The notes below the pieces were generated by a model. That model worked only from the letters and a program-made list of their open reading frames with translations. It searched no databases and was not told the origin of the DNA. A stretch of 30,314 nt of DNA from a virus (Duplodnaviria; Heunggongvirae; Uroviricota; Caudoviricetes), in the IMG/VR virus record IMGVR_UViG_2675903650_000004, positions 1 to 30,314 of that record; one strand, given 5' to 3'. The number at the start of each line of letters is the position of its first letter. Position 1 is the first letter of the stretch. Shown in pieces: positions 1 to 26,509 of the stretch. The position numbers were made by a program, and so were the translations under genes.

Positions 1-309
1 ACTAAATCAGTAAGTTGGCAGCATCACCGGCACCTCGCTGTCGGATGCTTTTGCTCTTTGAGATTATCAAAGCGGCAGATATTCTTTCATCTTAAATTTT
101 ACGTCTTTGTTCTGACTGAAGTTCATCCTGTTCGGCTGCGAAATAAATACATCATTAATACATATGTTGTGATGATGTATTTTTATAAATTATTTCCCGC
201 ATGAATTTTAATAAATTTAATCTATTCCTTTATACGCAATACATTTACTTTCCTCTTTTGATGATCTTAAATGTCTCATTTTTCGTAATGTGTATAACAA
301 GGAATAGTG

Positions 310-2708: not shown

Positions 2709-3006
2709 GTTTAGACCTCGATACTTTGAAAATTTGAACGACGTTACCGCGCGTTTTAATAACCGCAGCGAGCATGACAGCGTTGATAATGACCTCAGAT
2801 AAATCCACAGCCATTGGCGTGCGTAACCAGATTGCATAGGCGACACGAACAGGAATACTGGCCGCAGCAACAATCAGGAAATAAGCAAGCCACCCTCCCC
2901 ATCTTCGGTGTTGTGACCCGTTACGCCGAAATGTGACAACGCGAATTGCTATGCCAGTACAAATAACTGCATTGGTGATAAGAAAAAAAAGCTCATACGT
3001 TGCCAT
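2698..3006 (-). CDS. holin-like small membrane protein
   Basis: 102 aa, 2-3 predicted TM helices, charged C-terminus; RBS GGGGAG 8 nt upstream; directly upstream of and overlapping the endolysin gene. Confidence 0.7.
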
Positions 3007-3397
3007 CGTCTTTTCTCCCCGGAATTAACTCACGTGGATTATCGGAACGGTGATAGAGCCAGATGCCAATTCGTACTGCGACGATTGCTGACACGAATGC
3101 GCCAGCAGAGAAAACAACCCCTTTCTCGAAAGAGTCCTGCGTGATAGTAGGGATCAGGCTAGCTACGCCTATAAGAATTGATGCTGCTGGTTTGTAGAAA
3201 AGAAGCCCACAGAGAAAGCTAAGCATCGACAAGAGTACGCGACGACTAATTGGGTACTCTACCGCAGAGGTAACAAAAATCACCGCTCCTGACAAAGACC
3301 CCAACGCTACTTCTGGAGGTACTCCTGCTATCACCGCAGCTAGAGAACCAAGACTAAGCCATTGATTTAATGTTTCACTGGTTAGTTGAACTGACAT
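2993..3397 (-). CDS. second holin/antiholin-like membrane protein
   Basis: ORF 2993..3406, about 4 hydrophobic helices; ATG at 3397 preferred over GTG 3406; first gene of lysis cassette after 400-nt untranslated region. Confidence 0.6.
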   Translation of the reverse strand: MSVQLTSETLNQWLSLGSLAAVIAGVPPEVALGSLSGAVIFVTSAVEYPISRRVLLSMLSFLCGLLFYKPAASILIGVASLIPTITQDSFEKGVVFSAGAFVSAIVAVRIGIWLYHRSDNPRELIPGRKDDGNV

Positions 3398-3812
3398 AGA
3401 AACCACCGTTTACTGTGCATAAAGACCCACCTTAGTTGGTGAGTCCATCATACACAATTAATACATATATGGTTTAATTGAAATCCCCAAAAACATTCTG
3501 AATAGGTGAGGTGTTTTCTGGCTCCATAGCTATGACGTGGCTTTTGATGCCTAACTTTATAAGGTGCCACGACAATGTGATAGGTACATAGGATTCAGTT
3601 ACCAATGCAAAGCTTTGTGTGTCTCAGTTTTGTCTCATGCCAACCCAGTAGAATCAATCTACTTAATCTCTCTGCAGTGAATATTTTGTTTGCACGCAAT
3701 TGCACATGATGAACTGGCGCTTATGATAATTTCTGACGGTGATCTGATGGGAGTGAAAGTGCGGCTATCTGATGATACAATGCTCTTCAAAATAAACAGT
3801 TAGGTGATTTTT

Positions 3813-4856
3813 ATGTTGGTCAAAGATGCGCTAAAAAGGGATAACAATAACCTTGACTTAATACGTATTTTTTGTGCAATTTCTGTAATATTTGCCCATT
3901 CATATTATCTTGCAAATTCTGATGGAGCCCAGGAGCCGGTTCAGTCTGTTTTCACATTTACATATACTGGTTCCATTGCTGTAAAAATATTTTTCTTTAT
4001 TAGCGGAATGCTTGTAACTAATAGTTTATTAACAACGCGAAACATACCACACTTTATTTCATCTAGATTTTTTAGAATATTCCCCGCATTCATTTTTGTT
4101 TTATTATTCGCGACATTCATTGTTGGACCATTACTTACAACGCATTCAATGACATCTTATTTAAAAGATACGCTGACGTACAGCTATCTATTTAAAAGCT
4201 CATATTTGGATATGCAATTTTTTCTTCCTGGTGTTTTTGAGGAAAATATATATAAAAGCTCAGTTAATGGTTCTTTATGGACAATACCATATGAAGTTGC
4301 ATCTTATGTCGTGCTCCTAGCATGCTACATGATAACTCAGAGCAGAGGAAGAATAATACCTAGCATCATATGCTTATCAATAATAGCGCTTCCAGTATTG
4401 GGATGGAACAAATTAATTTTTATAAATAACGATAATGCAGATGTGTTTTTAATGGCTCCATGCTTTGCTCTTGGCGCATTGTATGCTATAAACAAGGACA
4501 AAATATACATTTCACTACATGCACCAATAGGATTTGCAATATTATATAATTTTGTGTCAGAACCAACACTCAAGCATATGCTTTTTTATTTTTGCGCATG
4601 TACATTTTTCGTATATTTATCAACAACAAAAATAATAAAATCAATAAGAATAAAACATGATGTATCATATGGCGTTTACTTGTGGGGCTTTTTAATACAG
4701 CAGATAACATTCAGGTTATTACCTGATATAAATCTGTACTTAAATCAAGTTTTATGCATAGCACTATCACTTATTGCTGGACTGATATCATTTATTGCGA
4801 TAGAAAAACCAGCAATGGATATTGGGAAAAAGATATCAAACAAATTCAGATATTAG
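3813..4856 (+). CDS. acyltransferase family 3 membrane protein (O-antigen O-acetyltransferase-like, Oac/OafA type)
   Basis: ORF 3804..4856; ATG 3813 with RBS AGGTGA 5 nt upstream; about 10 TM helices; N-terminal NNxxDxxRxxxAxxVxxxH motif of Acyl_transf_3; very AT-rich codon usage unlike neighbours. Confidence 0.85.
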   Translation: MLVKDALKRDNNNLDLIRIFCAISVIFAHSYYLANSDGAQEPVQSVFTFTYTGSIAVKIFFFISGMLVTNSLLTTRNIPHFISSRFFRIFPAFIFVLLFATFIVGPLLTTHSMTSYLKDTLTYSYLFKSSYLDMQFFLPGVFEENIYKSSVNGSLWTIPYEVASYVVLLACYMITQSRGRIIPSIICLSIIALPVLGWNKLIFINNDNADVFLMAPCFALGALYAINKDKIYISLHAPIGFAILYNFVSEPTLKHMLFYFCACTFFVYLSTTKIIKSIRIKHDVSYGVYLWGFLIQQITFRLLPDINLYLNQVLCIALSLIAGLISFIAIEKPAMDIGKKISNKFRY

Positions 4857-4859
4857 ATA

Positions 4860-4886
4860 AAAAGGGGCTTTCAGCCCCTTTTTTTA
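4860..4886. terminator. bidirectional intrinsic terminator between convergent acyltransferase and tailspike genes
   Basis: Stem AGGGGCT / AGCCCCT with 3-nt loop, A-run upstream and T-run downstream (coordinates approximate). Confidence 0.7.
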
Positions 4887-6986
4887 CGTGGTAGTTGCGG
4901 ATACCTTCCATTCACCAGTTGATACGTATGTCCACTTCCACGGTCCGGTAGAAACCGGACCAAGCAATTCCCACTTGGTGCCAAACGGGAAATTAGTTGT
5001 ATCTCCCGTGGGTGGTGATACTGATAGAACCGTTATATATCCTGACTCAAGTCTGCATAATGCAGTCCATGATGAGTTTCCGGTTATACTATAGGTGCCG
5101 CCTGAATCAACCTTGTTGATCCAGCTCTGCCCACTCCCCCATCTAATAGAATCAGTGGTGTTGTCGGGAATTACCGCACCATTAAAATTTGCAGTTGCAT
5201 CATTAAGATATATGTATTTGCTAGATGAGACTCCAGAGTAACCAGAAAAATGAGATGAAACCAATGAGATGAAACACGATTCCAGAGATACAGCTTCAAC
5301 TCCTCCATCATGATGATTAACCCCTCTAAATGCAGTTACGTTAATTCGACTACCATTTATATCAAATATTTTACCAGTGCCTTCTTCGCTTCCGCATCCA
5401 GATAGATTTACTCCAGTACAATCTTTAAATTTATAGCCAGTACCATTAACGAAGTCAGCAGCCAAACAAGTCAGGCTGCTATATGTAATGTTATTAAAAT
5501 CATATGCAACACCTGAACATGTTTTCACATAAATATTGTTTAAATTATATGTGGTTCCACCTGCTTCGATTTTAACTCCAGTAACGACATCCTGAATAGT
5601 AATGTTTTCCCATGTCTGCAACCAGCTATCACTAGTGCGATAACCGGTTTTCACCCTATGAATATACAGGTCCTGAAGGCGCACATTGTAACTGATAGCG
5701 CTATATATCCCGTAATCACAAGGATTGGGCGCAGTATTTAGAATACTCAATCCAATTATTCTGGTGCTTCTTGTTTGTTTCCCGCTTAAATCACCTGATG
5801 TGTCACTATCCATATCTACCGCAACAATAAAGTCTTTGGAGAAGCTGTGTGGTACACCCTGCCACATGCGATCCGGAACGGTTTTAATATCGTTACCTGT
5901 TTTAATTAATCCACAGGAATCCATACCGCACCCCTCCAGCGTGACACGTGGAGGCACGATAGCGCCATACTTAATATCGTAAAATCCATTGAGTCTGAGC
6001 GTACCTCCTTCATATGGAAGGCATGCAGTCAGGCGTTCAAAGGCTTCACTGTTTTGCTCAGCCGTACATGATGTCATCATGCCACCGTTCTCTACCGGAA
6101 TATCGATGTGGCTTCCAGCTCTCTTCCATCGCTTACCGCCGGGGGTAACAAAAATATTCACACCATCGTCAGCTTCAGAACTGTCAAACGACATGAACAC
6201 CCCACCTCCAAGACCGGGGGTATCGCTATAATAACCTCTGACAATAATTTGCTGGTTTACTGACGAAGGTTCAGTATTTCTTAATGTGGCCACATCAGGG
6301 CAGGAACCGATATTTTTAAACCCATCGGTGGCAGCAAGCTGCAACATGACATCAGTAGCGCTCCCAGATTCCGGGAGAACCATGATTGGGTCTCCTGAAT
6401 CATCCATTGCAACAATCTTATTCTTACGTTGCTCAACGCCGGGCAAAGTTGATATCGGTTCGGGAGTTCGTAGCGTTCTGCTCAGGTTTGTTTCTGCAAG
6501 CCCGTCAACATAATTTTTCGTTGCTGCATCTTGCGGCCTAGATGGGTCACGAAGATTACGAATATAGTTATTCATCGCGTCGTAATAATTAGCCACGAAC
6601 GACGGCTTTCGTAGCGCCAGACTGAACCAATTTCGAACCTGCTGGATCAGCATCGTTAGCTTATCAAAAGCGTTCTCATGCACTTCTGCAAAGAACTTAC
6701 CCTGATTACGCAAATCAGTTTCCTGCGTAACCGGTAGCTCTCGATATATAGAAATCAGATAACCGTTAGCCAACACCTTCGACAGAATTACATTACCACC
6801 GTTATATCCTCCCGCCCCGGTAACTGTGTAATCAGTATCAAGAGCAAGAACAGTGATATTTTCATCAAGGTCAACCACTTGTACTACCAGATCAGATTTC
6901 TGGAAAATCCTGAAGGTATACGGAAATGATGTCGTAACACCGTTACCTGTGTATTCGTTGTGGTCAACTTCGGTTGAGACCGTCAT
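4884..6986 (-). CDS. tailspike / tail fibre with T7 gp17-like N-terminal anchor and beta-helix-like receptor-binding body
   Basis: 700 aa; N-terminal about 150 aa match the conserved podovirus tail-fibre anchor pattern (YTGNGVTTSFPYTF...DYTV) as remembered for T7 gp17; remainder rich in G/S/T/N beta-strand repeats typical of polysaccharide-binding or depolymerase tailspikes. Confidence 0.85.
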   Translation of the reverse strand: MTVSTEVDHNEYTGNGVTTSFPYTFRIFQKSDLVVQVVDLDENITVLALDTDYTVTGAGGYNGGNVILSKVLANGYLISIYRELPVTQETDLRNQGKFFAEVHENAFDKLTMLIQQVRNWFSLALRKPSFVANYYDAMNNYIRNLRDPSRPQDAATKNYVDGLAETNLSRTLRTPEPISTLPGVEQRKNKIVAMDDSGDPIMVLPESGSATDVMLQLAATDGFKNIGSCPDVATLRNTEPSSVNQQIIVRGYYSDTPGLGGGVFMSFDSSEADDGVNIFVTPGGKRWKRAGSHIDIPVENGGMMTSCTAEQNSEAFERLTACLPYEGGTLRLNGFYDIKYGAIVPPRVTLEGCGMDSCGLIKTGNDIKTVPDRMWQGVPHSFSKDFIVAVDMDSDTSGDLSGKQTRSTRIIGLSILNTAPNPCDYGIYSAISYNVRLQDLYIHRVKTGYRTSDSWLQTWENITIQDVVTGVKIEAGGTTYNLNNIYVKTCSGVAYDFNNITYSSLTCLAADFVNGTGYKFKDCTGVNLSGCGSEEGTGKIFDINGSRINVTAFRGVNHHDGGVEAVSLESCFISLVSSHFSGYSGVSSSKYIYLNDATANFNGAVIPDNTTDSIRWGSGQSWINKVDSGGTYSITGNSSWTALCRLESGYITVLSVSPPTGDTTNFPFGTKWELLGPVSTGPWKWTYVSTGEWKVSATTT

Positions 6987-7598: not shown

Positions 7599-7754
7599 AT
7601 GCGTTAAGCACAGCCATATCCGAATTATGGTGGGCTGGGCAGGGGTCCGAAAGGACGCCGGTACCACTTAGGCCGGTACGCCAACCTTGTCCAGTTCACC
7701 ACCAGTAATTGGCGTTGCGGTGGTGATTAAAATCACTAAGTGGAGATAACCACC

Positions 7755-8465
7755 ATGGCTAATGCTCAAACTGCCATCTTCAAATTTGAATCTGTTAACC
7801 CTATCCGTTCCATCATTATCGATGGCCAACCATGGTTTGTAGCCCAAGACGTTTGTAGTGCGCTGCGTATCCAAAACGTCACCCAATCACTTGAAAAACT
7901 GGATGATGATGAAAGGTCTATGTTCAACATAGGGCATGAACATCGTGCAATTTTTGACAGCCGAGTAAAAGAGATCAACATCATCTCCGAGTCAGGCCTC
8001 TACACACTGATCCTCCGCTGCCGCGATGCGGTGACACCAGGCACTATCCCCTACCGCTTTCGTAAATGGGTTACAGGTGAGGTTCTTCCTCAGATCCGCC
8101 GCACCGGAAGTTACATTAAAAACTCGCTCCCGCAGGAAGAACGCATAAAGATGGTTGCCGACCAGGTAGCCAACGCCACGGCGTCAGCAGTAATACAGGC
8201 AATGAAGATAGAGAACAAAACCTACAGTGCCCCACTGAAGCCCGGCTACCGCAGCCTGATTCACTCGCCGTCTGGTGTTCTCGGCCTGACGGAGAACTCA
8301 CTGCTGATGAATCTGCTGAACCAGTTACAGGAAGACGGGCATGACGTATCGGGCGCGGCGGCGGAACTGACCACCATGTTCTGCTACATCGTCGGTGTGA
8401 GTAAATGCCTGCGTGATATCCAGACCCACGCGGAATACATCAACGACAAGGCAGGATTCTTCTGA
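7755..8465 (+). CDS. phage antirepressor (Bro-N / Ant N-terminal domain plus C-terminal domain)
   Basis: ORF 7740..8465 (GTG); ATG 7755 with GGAG 9 nt upstream; Bro-N-type signature FKFESVNPIRSIIIDGQPWFVAQDVCSALRI. Confidence 0.85.
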   Translation: MANAQTAIFKFESVNPIRSIIIDGQPWFVAQDVCSALRIQNVTQSLEKLDDDERSMFNIGHEHRAIFDSRVKEINIISESGLYTLILRCRDAVTPGTIPYRFRKWVTGEVLPQIRRTGSYIKNSLPQEERIKMVADQVANATASAVIQAMKIENKTYSAPLKPGYRSLIHSPSGVLGLTENSLLMNLLNQLQEDGHDVSGAAAELTTMFCYIVGVSKCLRDIQTHAEYINDKAGFF

Positions 8466-8612: not shown

Positions 8613-8792
8613 ATGCGAAACGAAAAATTGCAGATGCGTAGAGCGCAAGCTGCCGCAAGACGTTCTTTCAATGGAAGCGTAGAGTACGTAAAAGTTACTA
8701 TGACAAAAGATCACGCAAGTCGCGTATCCCGCGCTTTCTTTGATTCTCGTAACAATAAGGAAAATTATGAGTTCGTCTGCGTCGCAGAATGA
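8613..8792 (+). CDS. hypothetical 59-aa basic protein (candidate antitoxin or regulator)
   Basis: Not in ORF track (below length cut-off); ATG 8613 with GAGG 7 nt upstream; translation MRNEKLQMRRAQAAARRSF...; 3' end overlaps start of ORF 8767 by 26 nt. Confidence 0.35.
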   Translation: MRNEKLQMRRAQAAARRSFNGSVEYVKVTMTKDHASRVSRAFFDSRNNKENYEFVCVAE

Positions 8793-9312
8793 TAAAAATC
8801 AAATTGTCAGATATAAGGGTCGAGTATTGCATACGCAAAATTTCTCGGCCCTTTGTGCATCTGATCTTGAGCTGAAGAAAGTATCTGATGCCTTTACCCA
8901 GTATTGGAAAACGGGATACCATCCATCTCTTGGTAAAGATGCTGCATTTGCTCGTCCGACAGAAATGCTTAAACTAAATGTCAGGCATACTCATGTCGAT
9001 AACCAAGACTATATTCCAGAAGATAGTGATAAAAAACACACTGGTAAAAAATCATCTTGGGATGCATGGAAAAATATAGCGTCTGTACAAGTAAAATGCA
9101 TACCAACAAGTGATTGCTTTTTAGTTTATTCGGTAAATCACAATCGTGATGCGCTGGTTATGTTTTTTGTTGACGCAGATGCTCACAACATAACTGAGCA
9201 AGAAGAGTTTAAAGAGGCAGCAATCACTATCAGTTATCAATTCTTTGAGAAAACAAAAACAGAACCAATGCCTTTAGAAGAAGATCTTTTTTCTGATAAA
9301 TGGAAGGAATAG
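8767..9312 (+). CDS. hypothetical protein with YafO-like toxin motif (candidate toxin or abortive-infection effector)
   Basis: ORF 8740..9312 (TTG); ATG 8767 with AAGGA RBS; central G[KR]DA...RP...H.H.. and LVY...D.D.H pattern resembles YafO-family toxins as recalled from memory; AT-rich; own promoter/operator upstream and terminator downstream. Confidence 0.7.
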   Translation: MSSSASQNDKNQIVRYKGRVLHTQNFSALCASDLELKKVSDAFTQYWKTGYHPSLGKDAAFARPTEMLKLNVRHTHVDNQDYIPEDSDKKHTGKKSSWDAWKNIASVQVKCIPTSDCFLVYSVNHNRDALVMFFVDADAHNITEQEEFKEAAITISYQFFEKTKTEPMPLEEDLFSDKWKE

Positions 9313-21624: not shown

Positions 21625-22062
21625 TTAACCAGTTACTTTTGAGCGGATCGGATACGGCGTATTGGCATCAACATCAAGACTGATACCCGCAGTGAATTCG
21701 CCAGCCGTTAGTGGGCCAGTTGCGACGGAGTAGTTAACACGCAGATATCGCTGAACACCGGCAGGCACCTTTGCAGAAACAACTCGTTTACCTGCTGTCA
21801 GGGCGGTCTTTGCCAGTGCGCCACTATCATAAATAGTGGTCCATGAGCTGTTATTCTCACTCGTCTGCAACTGGATGTTTACAGTTGCATCACCGCTTGC
21901 CGCGGCGGCTGTGTTAACCAGCGCCCAAAACTCAAGCGGGTAACCTACGCCGATATCACGACGTTTTCCGTCAATTGGACCGAGATCGATTACGTCAGTA
22001 GAAGCCGCGGTATTCGTAACCGCCTGAGCTTCGGAGAACATCAACAGTTTGTCGGTGATCAT
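21625..22062 (-). CDS. putative capsid decoration / cement protein
   Basis: 145 aa, Ala/Thr/Gly-rich beta-type composition, directly downstream of major capsid gene. Confidence 0.55.
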   Translation of the reverse strand: MITDKLLMFSEAQAVTNTAASTDVIDLGPIDGKRRDIGVGYPLEFWALVNTAAAASGDATVNIQLQTSENNSSWTTIYDSGALAKTALTAGKRVVSAKVPAGVQRYLRVNYSVATGPLTAGEFTAGISLDVDANTPYPIRSKVTG

Positions 22063-23812: not shown

Positions 23813-24109
23813 TCACTCCTGTTCACTGGCCTCTTTGGCCATCTTCAAATACTGTTCAGGGCAATGCGCCATAACGCGCTGAAACAGTTCCAGCGCCAGA
23901 TTGCGTTGCCCCTCATTAAATGCCATTGCCATAGCGTCCATCGGTGAGATAGCGGAAAACACACGGCCTTTCTCCAGCACCGACCAGACAACGCGACGCC
24001 CCTGTTCACTGCTCATGACAAAGCGAATGTCATCAATTTCACGCTGCGCCATGTCACGTTGCTTACGGGCGTTTTCTTCTTTCAGTTGATCGTCTTCGTA
24101 ATCTGTCAT
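23813..24109 (-). CDS. hypothetical protein between portal and scaffold genes
   Basis: 98 aa, acidic; 4-nt overlaps on both sides. Confidence 0.6.
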   Translation of the reverse strand: MTDYEDDQLKEENARKQRDMAQREIDDIRFVMSSEQGRRVVWSVLEKGRVFSAISPMDAMAMAFNEGQRNLALELFQRVMAHCPEQYLKMAKEASEQE

Positions 24110-25470
24110 TGTGATTGCCCACCCTGACCACTAACTGCATTCGCCATAGCTGACAAAACACTCGGATCCGAAGTTTTAGCTTCGCTTAGCGTCTTGGCAC
24201 CCTGTGCCGCCGCCATCCCCATCGCCATCATTTGTTGCTGCTGTTGCTGCTGTGCCCGTTGCTGGCGAGCCTGCTCAACCTGTTCCTGCGGAACAATGAC
24301 GGTTGGAGACACTCCGGACATATCAGCGAATGCATCGATCGCCTGATCAACGTTGAGTTTGTCGAGAGCTTCTGGTTTCGCTTGCGCAAGTTGACCAATG
24401 AAGTTAACCGTGGACGCCAGACTGGACAGGCCGATAGACTTCTGAGCCTGAGCCATGACGGAAATGTATTCGACCTTCAGGGGCATGCCTTCCATCGCGT
24501 CAGGCGGTGGCGGCAACATGTTTTTACGCACCATCATCGAGAAAGCGCGGTCAATGAGAGGATTAAGACATTCGTCGTTCAGACGCTCCAGAACCGGCCC
24601 CAACATCAGAAGTTTTTCTTCTTTCATTTCGATCACCGCTTCAACAGGCATCGAGCGGGTATTGATGTTCTGCAACATCATGAACAGATCGACAAAGTAG
24701 GCGCTGTTAATGATTTGCCGAGTGTCCTGAATGTCTGCTACCAGATCTGCTGTACTGGGGTTAACCAGATAAGCAGGCCTGAAGCCATCCTGACCAGTAA
24801 TCTGATCGATATACGTGATGTCGCCAGGAAGAAGGGAGGCGCGCTGATTCTTGAGGGAAGTCGGAGCAACCATCGGCGGATTGGTGGCTTTATCAATCAA
24901 CTGCGACTTGCGCTTCTGGAGAAGCTGCAATGCCTTAACAGGTCCAAGCGCCAGCATACCCGGGCATGATGATCCATAAACATCTTCGCCGTTAACTTCC
25001 CAGCGCGGAGCCATAATTGGAAACTCATCGAATCCTGACTCACGCAACAACTTGTCGTTATCGCCACCAACCTCGTAATAAACCGATTTGAATGGCTTGT
25101 TCTTGCTATCCAGCTTCGATGTATCGCGGTCAATGTTCGGGTAAACCGAATGCATCACTTCAATCCACTTCTCGTAGGTACCGCTTTCCCACATGCTTTT
25201 TACGGATTCGCTGACGTTATTTAGCCCGAACTCCTGAACAAGCTGACGAACAGTCATAGAGAACTTGCGAAAACAGGTGTCCACACTGCCACGAGGTGAG
25301 TTAGCCAGGTAGTAACTGCCTATCGGGAATGGCATTGTGCGAATGATGTCCTCGTCATCCTCCAGTACCGCCATTGCACCGGTGCTGTATGTGCCGAGGC
25401 TTCCGTATAACTGCGGCAGCGACTGATAGAGATTCGACTTATTGAACATATCGTTCATGCGGTTCTGCAC
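24106..25470 (-). CDS. portal protein, C-terminal 454-aa segment (frame differs from N-terminal segment)
   Basis: Gln-rich C-terminus ...QQRAQQQQQQQMMAMGMAAAQG resembles T7 gp8-type portal tails; begins with GTG immediately after an in-frame stop. Confidence 0.8.
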   Translation of the reverse strand: MQNRMNDMFNKSNLYQSLPQLYGSLGTYSTGAMAVLEDDEDIIRTMPFPIGSYYLANSPRGSVDTCFRKFSMTVRQLVQEFGLNNVSESVKSMWESGTYEKWIEVMHSVYPNIDRDTSKLDSKNKPFKSVYYEVGGDNDKLLRESGFDEFPIMAPRWEVNGEDVYGSSCPGMLALGPVKALQLLQKRKSQLIDKATNPPMVAPTSLKNQRASLLPGDITYIDQITGQDGFRPAYLVNPSTADLVADIQDTRQIINSAYFVDLFMMLQNINTRSMPVEAVIEMKEEKLLMLGPVLERLNDECLNPLIDRAFSMMVRKNMLPPPPDAMEGMPLKVEYISVMAQAQKSIGLSSLASTVNFIGQLAQAKPEALDKLNVDQAIDAFADMSGVSPTVIVPQEQVEQARQQRAQQQQQQQMMAMGMAAAQGAKTLSEAKTSDPSVLSAMANAVSGQGGQSQ

Positions 25471-25784
25471 CCCTCAAGCCACAACTTAACAGGGCCATAA
25501 TCCATCATTTCAGGATCTGGCGTAGCCAGGCGAAACCACGGACGCGCGGGGCTTGTGATGCCTGACATCATGCCGCTGGCGAGAGTGCGCGCCGCCATAG
25601 TCCCGGTCGAATCAATAATGCGTGTATTGCGTCGATCGTTACGGTTGACCTCAGAAGTCAGAAAGCGGGAACCACGCGGGTTGATGTAATCACTCAACTC
25701 GCGCCAGTGCGGCTCGAACGACTGACGCTCGCTTTCAAGTTGTGCGAACTGTTTGTTCAATCGCTCTTTAGTTGTTTCCGCCAT
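25455..25784 (-). CDS. portal protein, N-terminal 109-aa segment
   Basis: N-terminus ...KERLNKQFAQLESERQSFEPHW...ARTLASGMMSGITSPARPWFRL matches podovirus portal N-terminal pattern; ends in the -1 frame relative to the 24106..25470 ORF at a GGGG run. Confidence 0.75.
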   Translation of the reverse strand: MAETTKERLNKQFAQLESERQSFEPHWRELSDYINPRGSRFLTSEVNRNDRRNTRIIDSTGTMAARTLASGMMSGITSPARPWFRLATPDPEMMDYGPVKLWLEGCRTA

Positions 25785-26432: not shown

Positions 26433-26509
26433 GTGGCATTAGCTCAGTTGGACAGAGCAACCGCCTTCTAAGCGGTTGGTCGCAGGTTCGAATCCTGCAT
26501 GCCACGCCA
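26433..26509 (+). tRNA. tRNA-Arg (anticodon UCU)
   Basis: Cloverleaf read by eye: acceptor GTGGCAT/ATGCCAC, D-arm GCTC-AGTTGGAC-AGAGC, anticodon stem ACCGC/GCGGT with loop CTTCTAA, T-arm GCAGG-TTCGAAT-CCTGC, 3' discriminator G + CCA. Confidence 0.85.

Follow-up and report, generated by a model that had tools for sequence, protein, structure and literature searches.

The closest described relatives of the gene considered here are the portal (head-to-tail connector) genes of phage phiV10 (YP_512261.1, PhiV10p07) and of other Uetakevirus phages and prophages, whose whole-gene nucleotide identity to it is 98.5–99.4%. Each of the full-length portal matches listed in our searches (525 Escherichia coli records and about 15 phages) is 1680 nucleotides (nt) long and holds one portal gene encoding 559 amino acids (aa). 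The podovirus portals with solved structures, those of Carin1 (8CK0), T7 (gp8; 6QWP, 6R21, 7EY6) and LME-1 (9EFK), are single chains. The stretch of DNA that we analysed, hereafter the window, is the whole of IMG/VR record IMGVR_UViG_2675903650_000004 (positions 1 to 30,314) and comprises the late region of a phiV10/epsilon15-like (Uetakevirus) prophage integrated beside E. coli yfgI and yfgH. It shares with its Uetakevirus relatives the gene order TerS, TerL, small genes, tRNA-Arg, portal, Bbp19-like, protease and major capsid. As expected for a portal, the locus sits in the morphogenesis module with the large terminase on one side and the protease and major capsid genes on the other, and the module is collinear with phiV10 p01–p20. 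Unlike the phiV10-type portals, the gene in the window is one C short in codon 105 and occupies two frames instead of one 559-aa open reading frame (ORF). We infer that this one-base deletion, which is real, heritable and derived, most likely inactivates the portal of the prophage.

A first-pass annotation of this DNA had described a portal lying in two frames, as ORFs of 109 and 454 aa on the minus strand, and this layout was reproduced exactly (Table 1). The N-terminal ORF matches positions 2–103 of the Pfam profile Head-tail_con (PF12236; E=1e-35, 123.6 bits, cut-off 27), while the C-terminal ORF matches positions 102–488 of the same profile (E=7e-145, 483.5 bits, cut-off 27). Since the two ORFs adjoin on one PF12236 model, they are two halves of one domain and no chance pair of ORFs. 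A tblastn search of the window with the phiV10 portal placed residues 1–107 in frame -1 and residues 105–559 in frame -3. One polypeptide of about 550 aa spans the whole portal domain in the relatives, whereas in the window the domain is divided into pieces of 109 and 450 or 454 aa, depending on the start taken for the second. Gene calls on a contig of the same clone (L005) put the two pieces at 3001-3330 and 3327-4679, and the gene callers used for public assemblies give the 450-aa form. The second ORF had also been described as starting immediately after a stop; a TGA in the downstream frame at 25476..25474 does precede GGG GTG, and the N-terminal ORF itself stops at the TGA at 25457..25455.

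The missing base was identified by aligning the window with phiV10, phage ZX5 and an intact E. coli prophage. The relatives read CTT GAG GCG GTG CAG (L-E-A-V-Q) at this point; intact sequences thus read CTTGAGGCGGTGCAG, and the window reads CTTGAGG-GGTGCAG (alignments A1 and A4). What codon 105 (GCG, Ala) has lost is its central C. With this base restored, the window translates into 559 aa that do not differ from P0286 ('MULTISPECIES: portal protein [Enterobacteriaceae]'), which is found on at least 1000 contigs and is the commonest intact portal allele of the phage group. These alignments identify the deletion as a derived lesion relative to all intact relatives, and the GGGG run as its outcome and not its site, with no change in the length of a homopolymer. 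The first-pass annotation had attributed the split to a -1 frameshift at a four-base homopolymer at about 25462..25465 and had named reads with one more G, giving a single ORF, as a finding that would refute it. The run is in fact at 25473..25470 on the coding strand (CCCC at 25470..25473 on the plus strand), and intact relatives carry GGCGG (E-A-V), never GGGGG. No in-frame version with five G, which would encode an A105G protein, was found in a collection of 15 billion proteins. Read-through requires a -1 ribosomal shift, but the change in the DNA is the loss of C from GGCGG. A templated or quasi-palindromic origin of the deletion was considered and rejected: the window holds no second copy of the junction and no repeat touching the site.

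Table 1. Portal locus of the window: features and their positions (window coordinates)
Feature	Position	Strand	Description
Whole portal (head-to-tail connector) gene of the phiV10-like (Uetakevirus) prophage, probable pseudogene	24106..25784	-	1679 nt, against 1680 nt in intact relatives
N-terminal ORF, 109 aa, ATG start	25455..25784	-	Native residues 1-104, then frameshifted G-C-R-T-A and TGA stop
C-terminal ORF; 454 aa (start GTG 25470) or 450 aa (start ATG 25458)	24106..25470	-	Native residues 106 or 110 to 559
GGGG run	25470..25473	-	Product of the loss of C from codon 105; deletion point between 25472 and 25471
TGA in the downstream (true portal) frame	25474..25476	-	Bounds on its 5' side the stretch open to frame restoration; seen in the sequence itself
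ATGA overlap	25455..25458	-	Stop of the 109-aa ORF overlaps the ATG (native Met110) that starts the 450-aa ORF
Shine-Dalgarno-like UGAGGGGU	25469..25476	-	Strengthened by the deletion; ends 9 nt upstream of ATG 25458

An error of sequencing or assembly, with a genome that truly reads GGCGG and an intact portal gene, was among the explanations offered by the first-pass annotation. Single-base indels are the commonest kind of assembly error, and the window resembles a short-read contig ending in an IS1 repeat. Against this, the exact 109-aa product (P0001, ending ...WLEGCRTA) was found on 227 contigs in 262 blocks of NCBI, Logan and ENA, and the exact 450-aa product (P0287) on 223 contigs. Contigs from independent SRA runs are 99.98–100% identical to the window over up to 16.2 kb, and two metagenome contigs carry the deletion on haplotypes other than that of the window, which brings the carrier haplotypes to three. 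The identical lesion is therefore present in more than 200 contigs that differ in run, assembler and source, always on the same or related haplotypes. Over about 28 kb of prophage compared with phiV10, none of the other genes compared has an indel. The deletion is also absent from all 5426 complete E. coli genomes, 497 of which match the junction and are intact there. From these assembled contigs, a one-off error is effectively excluded, and we give this explanation next to no weight. An exact scan for the junction gave no match in GTDB one-genome-per-species contigs or in IMG/VR, and one match (L008) in metagenome contigs. No intact sibling prophage near-identical to the window was among the loci fetched, the closest being about 98% identical over the structural module.

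To locate the break in the protein, we used an AlphaFold (AF2) model built on an intact sibling (P0017) with 85 diverse homologues (40–52% identity). The model has a predicted local distance difference test score (pLDDT) of 85.1 and a predicted template modelling score (pTM) of 0.78. Foldseek returned the Carin1 portal 8CK0 (E=1.4e-48, template modelling scores 0.78/0.91), then LME-1 and T7 gp8, with a probability of 1.0 for T7 gp8 and other portals, so that the portal fold of the sibling is clear; the solved portals superpose on the model, and 8CK0 also matches the intact sibling by sequence (E=4.6e-177). Residues 97–116 form one helix with pLDDT 94–96. Among the 85 homologues, residues 80–135 are essentially free of gaps, and hydrophobic residues recur with conserved spacing at positions 99/102/103/106/110/113/114. 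No other position of the helix varies as much as 105 (D, T, E, A, Q, V and others), and Gly occurs there in none of the 85. This helix contains both the site of the frameshift (105) and that of the possible restart (110), neither of which lies in a loop or at a domain boundary. While the Carin1, T7 and LME-1 portals are each one continuous chain, the chain in the window is cut inside helix 97–116. According to the model, then, the lesion hits a conserved and structurally required part of the portal. Literature searches on 8CK0 or Carin1, and on portal frameshifts in phiV10-like prophages, found nothing.

The portal gene is also broken elsewhere in this prophage family. One further allele combines E104amber (GAG to TAG) with V106G (GTG to GGG, 7 nt away) in a stretch that is otherwise invariant (L017:9938-10040 and L018:9938-10040, corresponding to about 25460..25480 in the window); it is carried by 35 contigs, from named clinical E. 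coli isolates of the 5-366-08 series. Another, Q107amber (CAG to TAG; L021:5185-5287, about 25462..25464 in the window), is on 8 contigs. In a JGI/ENA contig of 22,928 nt (P0011) the portal frame is shifted, independently, around codon 78, close to a run of CCCC (...GITAPRVRGFAWLARS and then a stop). Restart ORFs beginning at M63, M72, M93, M113, M138, M151 and M177 were found on the same allele background, on 1–10 contigs each.

Three independent alleles (the deletion, E104amber with V106G, and Q107amber) inside 10 nt might be taken as a targeted or selected hot spot at codons 104–107, arising by escape from CRISPR self-targeting, by templated mutation or by host selection for a disabled portal. 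As we read the sequence, a type I-E protospacer could be supposed here, with the four changes falling in its GAG protospacer-adjacent motif or at positions 2, 5 and 7 of its seed. However, an exact look-up of the Met110-start ORF detects only lesions between Met94 and Met110 (codons 95–109), and seven other restart Met codons and the codon-78 frameshift are on record. The first 177 codons hold at least 10 alleles; three in 15 codons compare with about 0.85 expected, a marginal excess, and the counts of the other classes are minima. There is no repeat or quasi-palindrome able to template the change. CRISPR escape was followed up by comparing the intact 75-nt site with the 5426 complete E. coli genomes (E up to 10); this returned only full-length portal matches and nothing spacer-like, in a megablast search that needs 28 exact bases. 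We consider a hot spot highly improbable and judge that the clustering of the three alleles reflects ascertainment, with lesions spread along the gene. As a separate observation on the portal gene, the related phage vB_EcoP_PAS61 (OQ921333.1 15937..18144; H44, P0016) has a portal annotated at 735 aa rather than 559, with a two-piece match over 2208 nt, which may be a partial duplication or extension of the gene.

Our next question is whether ribosomes could join the two ORFs. Genes with programmed -1 frameshifting, such as those of the tail assembly chaperone G/GT, T7 gene 10A/10B and dnaX, require a -1 shift, as the window would to produce a full-length portal. A Z_ZZN tetramer is the minimal -1 shift site (PMC5009743), and one such tetramer, G_GGU, is located at the sole permissive place in the window, as in programmed -1 sites (PMC5009743). 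The similarity ends there. The two-frame arrangement is not conserved: more than 500 close relatives (the E. coli records and phages listed above) have a single ORF, as do nearly all of the best 150 representatives of 4413 diverse family clusters, which are single full-length portal proteins. The junction, CUU_GAG_GGG_UGC, contains no X_XXY_YYZ heptamer, and only the tetramer G_GGU re-pairs. Predicted folding of the 161 nt that surround the site is unremarkable against shuffled sequences (minimum free energy z=+1.08; 171/200 shuffles fold at least as well), and no Rfam element matches at the portal junction. Nor is there a Shine-Dalgarno (SD)-like stimulator about 10–14 nt upstream, the SD-like sequence coinciding with the slip site. 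Finally, and unlike at programmed sites, no separate role is plausible for the product made without a shift. By all of these sequence measures the portal of the window is not a case of programmed -1 frameshifting. The slippage-dependent expression suggested in the first-pass annotation is accordingly unsupported as an evolved feature and survives only as unprogrammed leakiness.

Several observations weigh against an inactivated portal, and they begin with such leakiness. If the P-site GGG tRNA-Gly moved back on G_GGU, a non-programmed slip would yield a little A105G portal and a low number of particles, and the prophage would be crippled, not dead. The frame can be restored only between the two TGA codons at 25476..25474 and 25457..25455, and GGGG is exactly there. 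At the G_GGU tetramer that the deletion itself made, the P-site tRNA-Gly re-pairs perfectly in the -1 frame, and the A105G substitution would fall at the position that varies most in the family. Nonprogrammed suppression of single-base deletions in E. coli reaches 1–10% in aggregate (PMC10861913). The 'savior' or compensated indels, namely the G-run mutants of herpes simplex virus (HSV) thymidine kinase and the leakiness seen in lacZ and lambda cI, are likewise single-base indels in a G run, and in those cases as in the window rare slippage could give a little full-length protein (PMC5009743, PMC10861913).

The comparison has limits, however. The run in the HSV case is 7–8 G, against 4 G in the window. 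The 1–10% suppression figures come from permissive windows of 56–77 codons (PMC10861913), against about 6 codons here, and because of this short stretch the efficiency of slipping at G_GGU would be expected to lie well below 1–10%. Besides the missing heptamer, downstream structure and Rfam element, the A site holds neither a rare nor a stop codon when GGG is in the P site. The Gly that a slip would place at 105 is found in none of the 85 homologues. As is well established, the portal is a 12-mer, the yield of which drops steeply with concentration, and abundant fragments could poison its assembly. The clone that carries the deletion also has a second nonsense mutation in a structural gene, as described below. 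We know of no selective benefit of a lowered portal level. A leaky slip is thus an unlikely explanation in our view.

The possible restart at Met110 belongs on the same side of the balance. The deletion creates both a good SD sequence and an ATGA overlap at 25458..25455: the duplex of UGAGGGGU with the anti-SD is predicted at -8.5 kcal/mol, as strong as real gene starts in the prophage (-3.1 to -10.0), and it ends 9 nt upstream of the ATG. From the strengthened SD and the overlap, the 450-aa piece is probably translated. The two pieces jointly span positions 1–559 with none missing; only residues 105–109 differ (GCRTA in place of AVQNR), and homologues with Cys at 106 and with Arg at 107 exist. 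The 109-aa and 450-aa pieces, made by termination and reinitiation at the ATGA, could in principle assemble into a working 'nicked' dodecamer. Such a split portal would be cut in a continuous, conserved helix, in a region that Pfam treats as one domain. No functional relative is split: phiV10, ZX5 and others encode one 559-aa protein, and not two proteins with the same boundaries, an arrangement that the first-pass annotation had named as a refutation; nearly all of the best 150 diverse representatives are single chains as well. The E104amber and Q107amber alleles, which have the same 450-aa ORF, lose 3–6 residues, and their recovery with this ORF is explained by the look-up method. With possible signs of relaxed selection in the clone added to this, we regard a functional split portal as very improbable.

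The history of the allele was examined in the clone of the window and in the other carriers. Five other contigs of the clone were compared with the window, over 16.2 kb for L019, L020, L022 and L023 and over 6.3 kb for L005, and each has 1–4 substitutions. The private coding changes are 1 nonsense, 4 missense and 2 synonymous. The nonsense change is a second inactivating mutation nested in the lineage with the deletion, a G to A at 21753 that produces Q104* in a Bbp16-like head gene (21625..22062, minus strand) in L020 and eight similar contigs. In the same genes, the window differs from phiV10 at 99 non-synonymous and 306 synonymous codons, so that the ratio of 5:2 in the clone contrasts with 99:306 (Fisher p=0.013, on only 7 clone changes). 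This contrast fits relaxed selection after the loss of the portal.

The same data contain further points in favour of a surviving portal. The contrast depends on those 7 changes, and non-synonymous changes are always over-represented among very young polymorphisms. The three haplotypes that carry the deletion are up to about 2% apart in neighbouring genes, and their other called genes are seemingly intact, which counts in favour of either a leaky slip or a split portal. The allele must therefore have moved by recombination or persisted for some time, and a functional allele would do likewise. In the C-terminal ORF, the window and L006 have 13 differences, all of them synonymous; most of these are alleles also present in intact relatives, and they probably predate the deletion or came by recombination. 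A test for a single origin based on shared tracts was uninformative, because the tract of about 1 kb that is identical between carriers is equally so in intact phiV10 and, near the deletion, hardly varies in any relative. We infer that a single origin of the deletion, followed by recombination between related prophages, is more likely than repeated origin. The spread over haplotypes nevertheless leaves some room for a transmissible allele. A phage that was still transmissible would account for the presence of the allele on three haplotypes with intact neighbours; that the portal does survive the deletion, whether by a G_GGU slip (A105G) or by 'nicked' assembly of the 109-aa and 450-aa pieces, we hold to have a small chance of being right.

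Inactivation of the portal, the best supported by the sequence data of the options raised in the first-pass annotation, would proceed as follows. Loss of the C of codon 105 shifts the frame, and translation from the native start ends at 109 residues. The remaining 450 residues are obtainable only through a restart at Met110 or a rare -1 slip. With the break in the middle of a helix, in a portal family made of single polypeptides, portal function would most likely be lost or severely reduced, and the prophage would then be unable to package its DNA into infectious particles. The carriers belong mainly to a single clone, whose prophage shows what may be continued neutral decay. In the window, the portal alone is broken: the other 19 phiV10 proteins, from TerS to p20, are full-length, in a single frame and with 0 gaps, and the lysis genes are intact. 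The lesion is recent, given that no other structural gene compared in the window has been broken.

Other features of the prophage were noted. Window bases 1..28 (ACTAAATCAGTAAGTTGGCAGCATCACC), which we take to be the IS1 terminal inverted repeat, are followed directly by the host sequence by yfgI. An IS1 at this yfgI junction is found in no complete E. coli genome; bases 1-27 are unmatched and all matches begin at base 28. The contig of the window probably broke at a lineage-specific copy of IS1. Among the small genes upstream of the portal is a tRNA-Arg with anticodon UCU (for the rare AGA codon; 26433..26509, plus strand), which is annotated in related prophages too. A 190-aa ORF at 8740..9312 (plus strand) has a borderline Pfam match to the YafO toxin (E=1.2e-5, 25.8 bits, cut-off 25) and adjoins a Bro-N gene at 7740..8465; this ORF is a candidate moron toxin gene. 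An Acyl_transf_3 gene (3804..4856, plus strand) stands where phiV10 has its O-antigen acetylase. Only the first ~320 residues of the 700-aa tailspike (4884..6986, minus strand) are common with the phiV10 tail fibre, and this sharing of the N-terminal part alone suggests that the O-antigen specificity of the prophage differs from that of phiV10.

The deletion is fixed in one frequently sequenced E. coli lineage, and it is ordinary prophage decay. Like the pseudogenes of decaying (cryptic) prophages, it affects a gene essential for morphogenesis, is derived and has become fixed in the host clone. The likeness extends to the nonsense mutation nested in a subclade, a possibly relaxed ratio of non-synonymous to synonymous changes and the independent portal lesions in the family. 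Unlike in typical decaying prophages, the lesion is very young and the other structural genes compared are intact. As a marker, the deletion cleanly identifies one E. coli lineage: over 200 public assemblies have it, and none of the 5426 complete genomes does.

For annotation, the locus is to be treated as a portal pseudogene of a phiV10-like prophage, with the prophage flagged as probably defective, and the two proteins at the locus, called 'hypothetical' or 'head-tail connector', should not be counted as separate genes. Two more general cautions follow: a homopolymer at a frameshift can result from an indel rather than cause it, and the method used to query a database can produce an apparent cluster of lesions. 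If a leaky slip or a split portal did operate here, the locus would be a tailed phage's natural example of a compensated indel or of a split portal, and would extend, modestly but genuinely, what is known of how phages tolerate indels in essential genes. For the family as a whole, the picture suggested by these alleles is of a portal gene that decays often and independently in the E. coli prophages that carry it.

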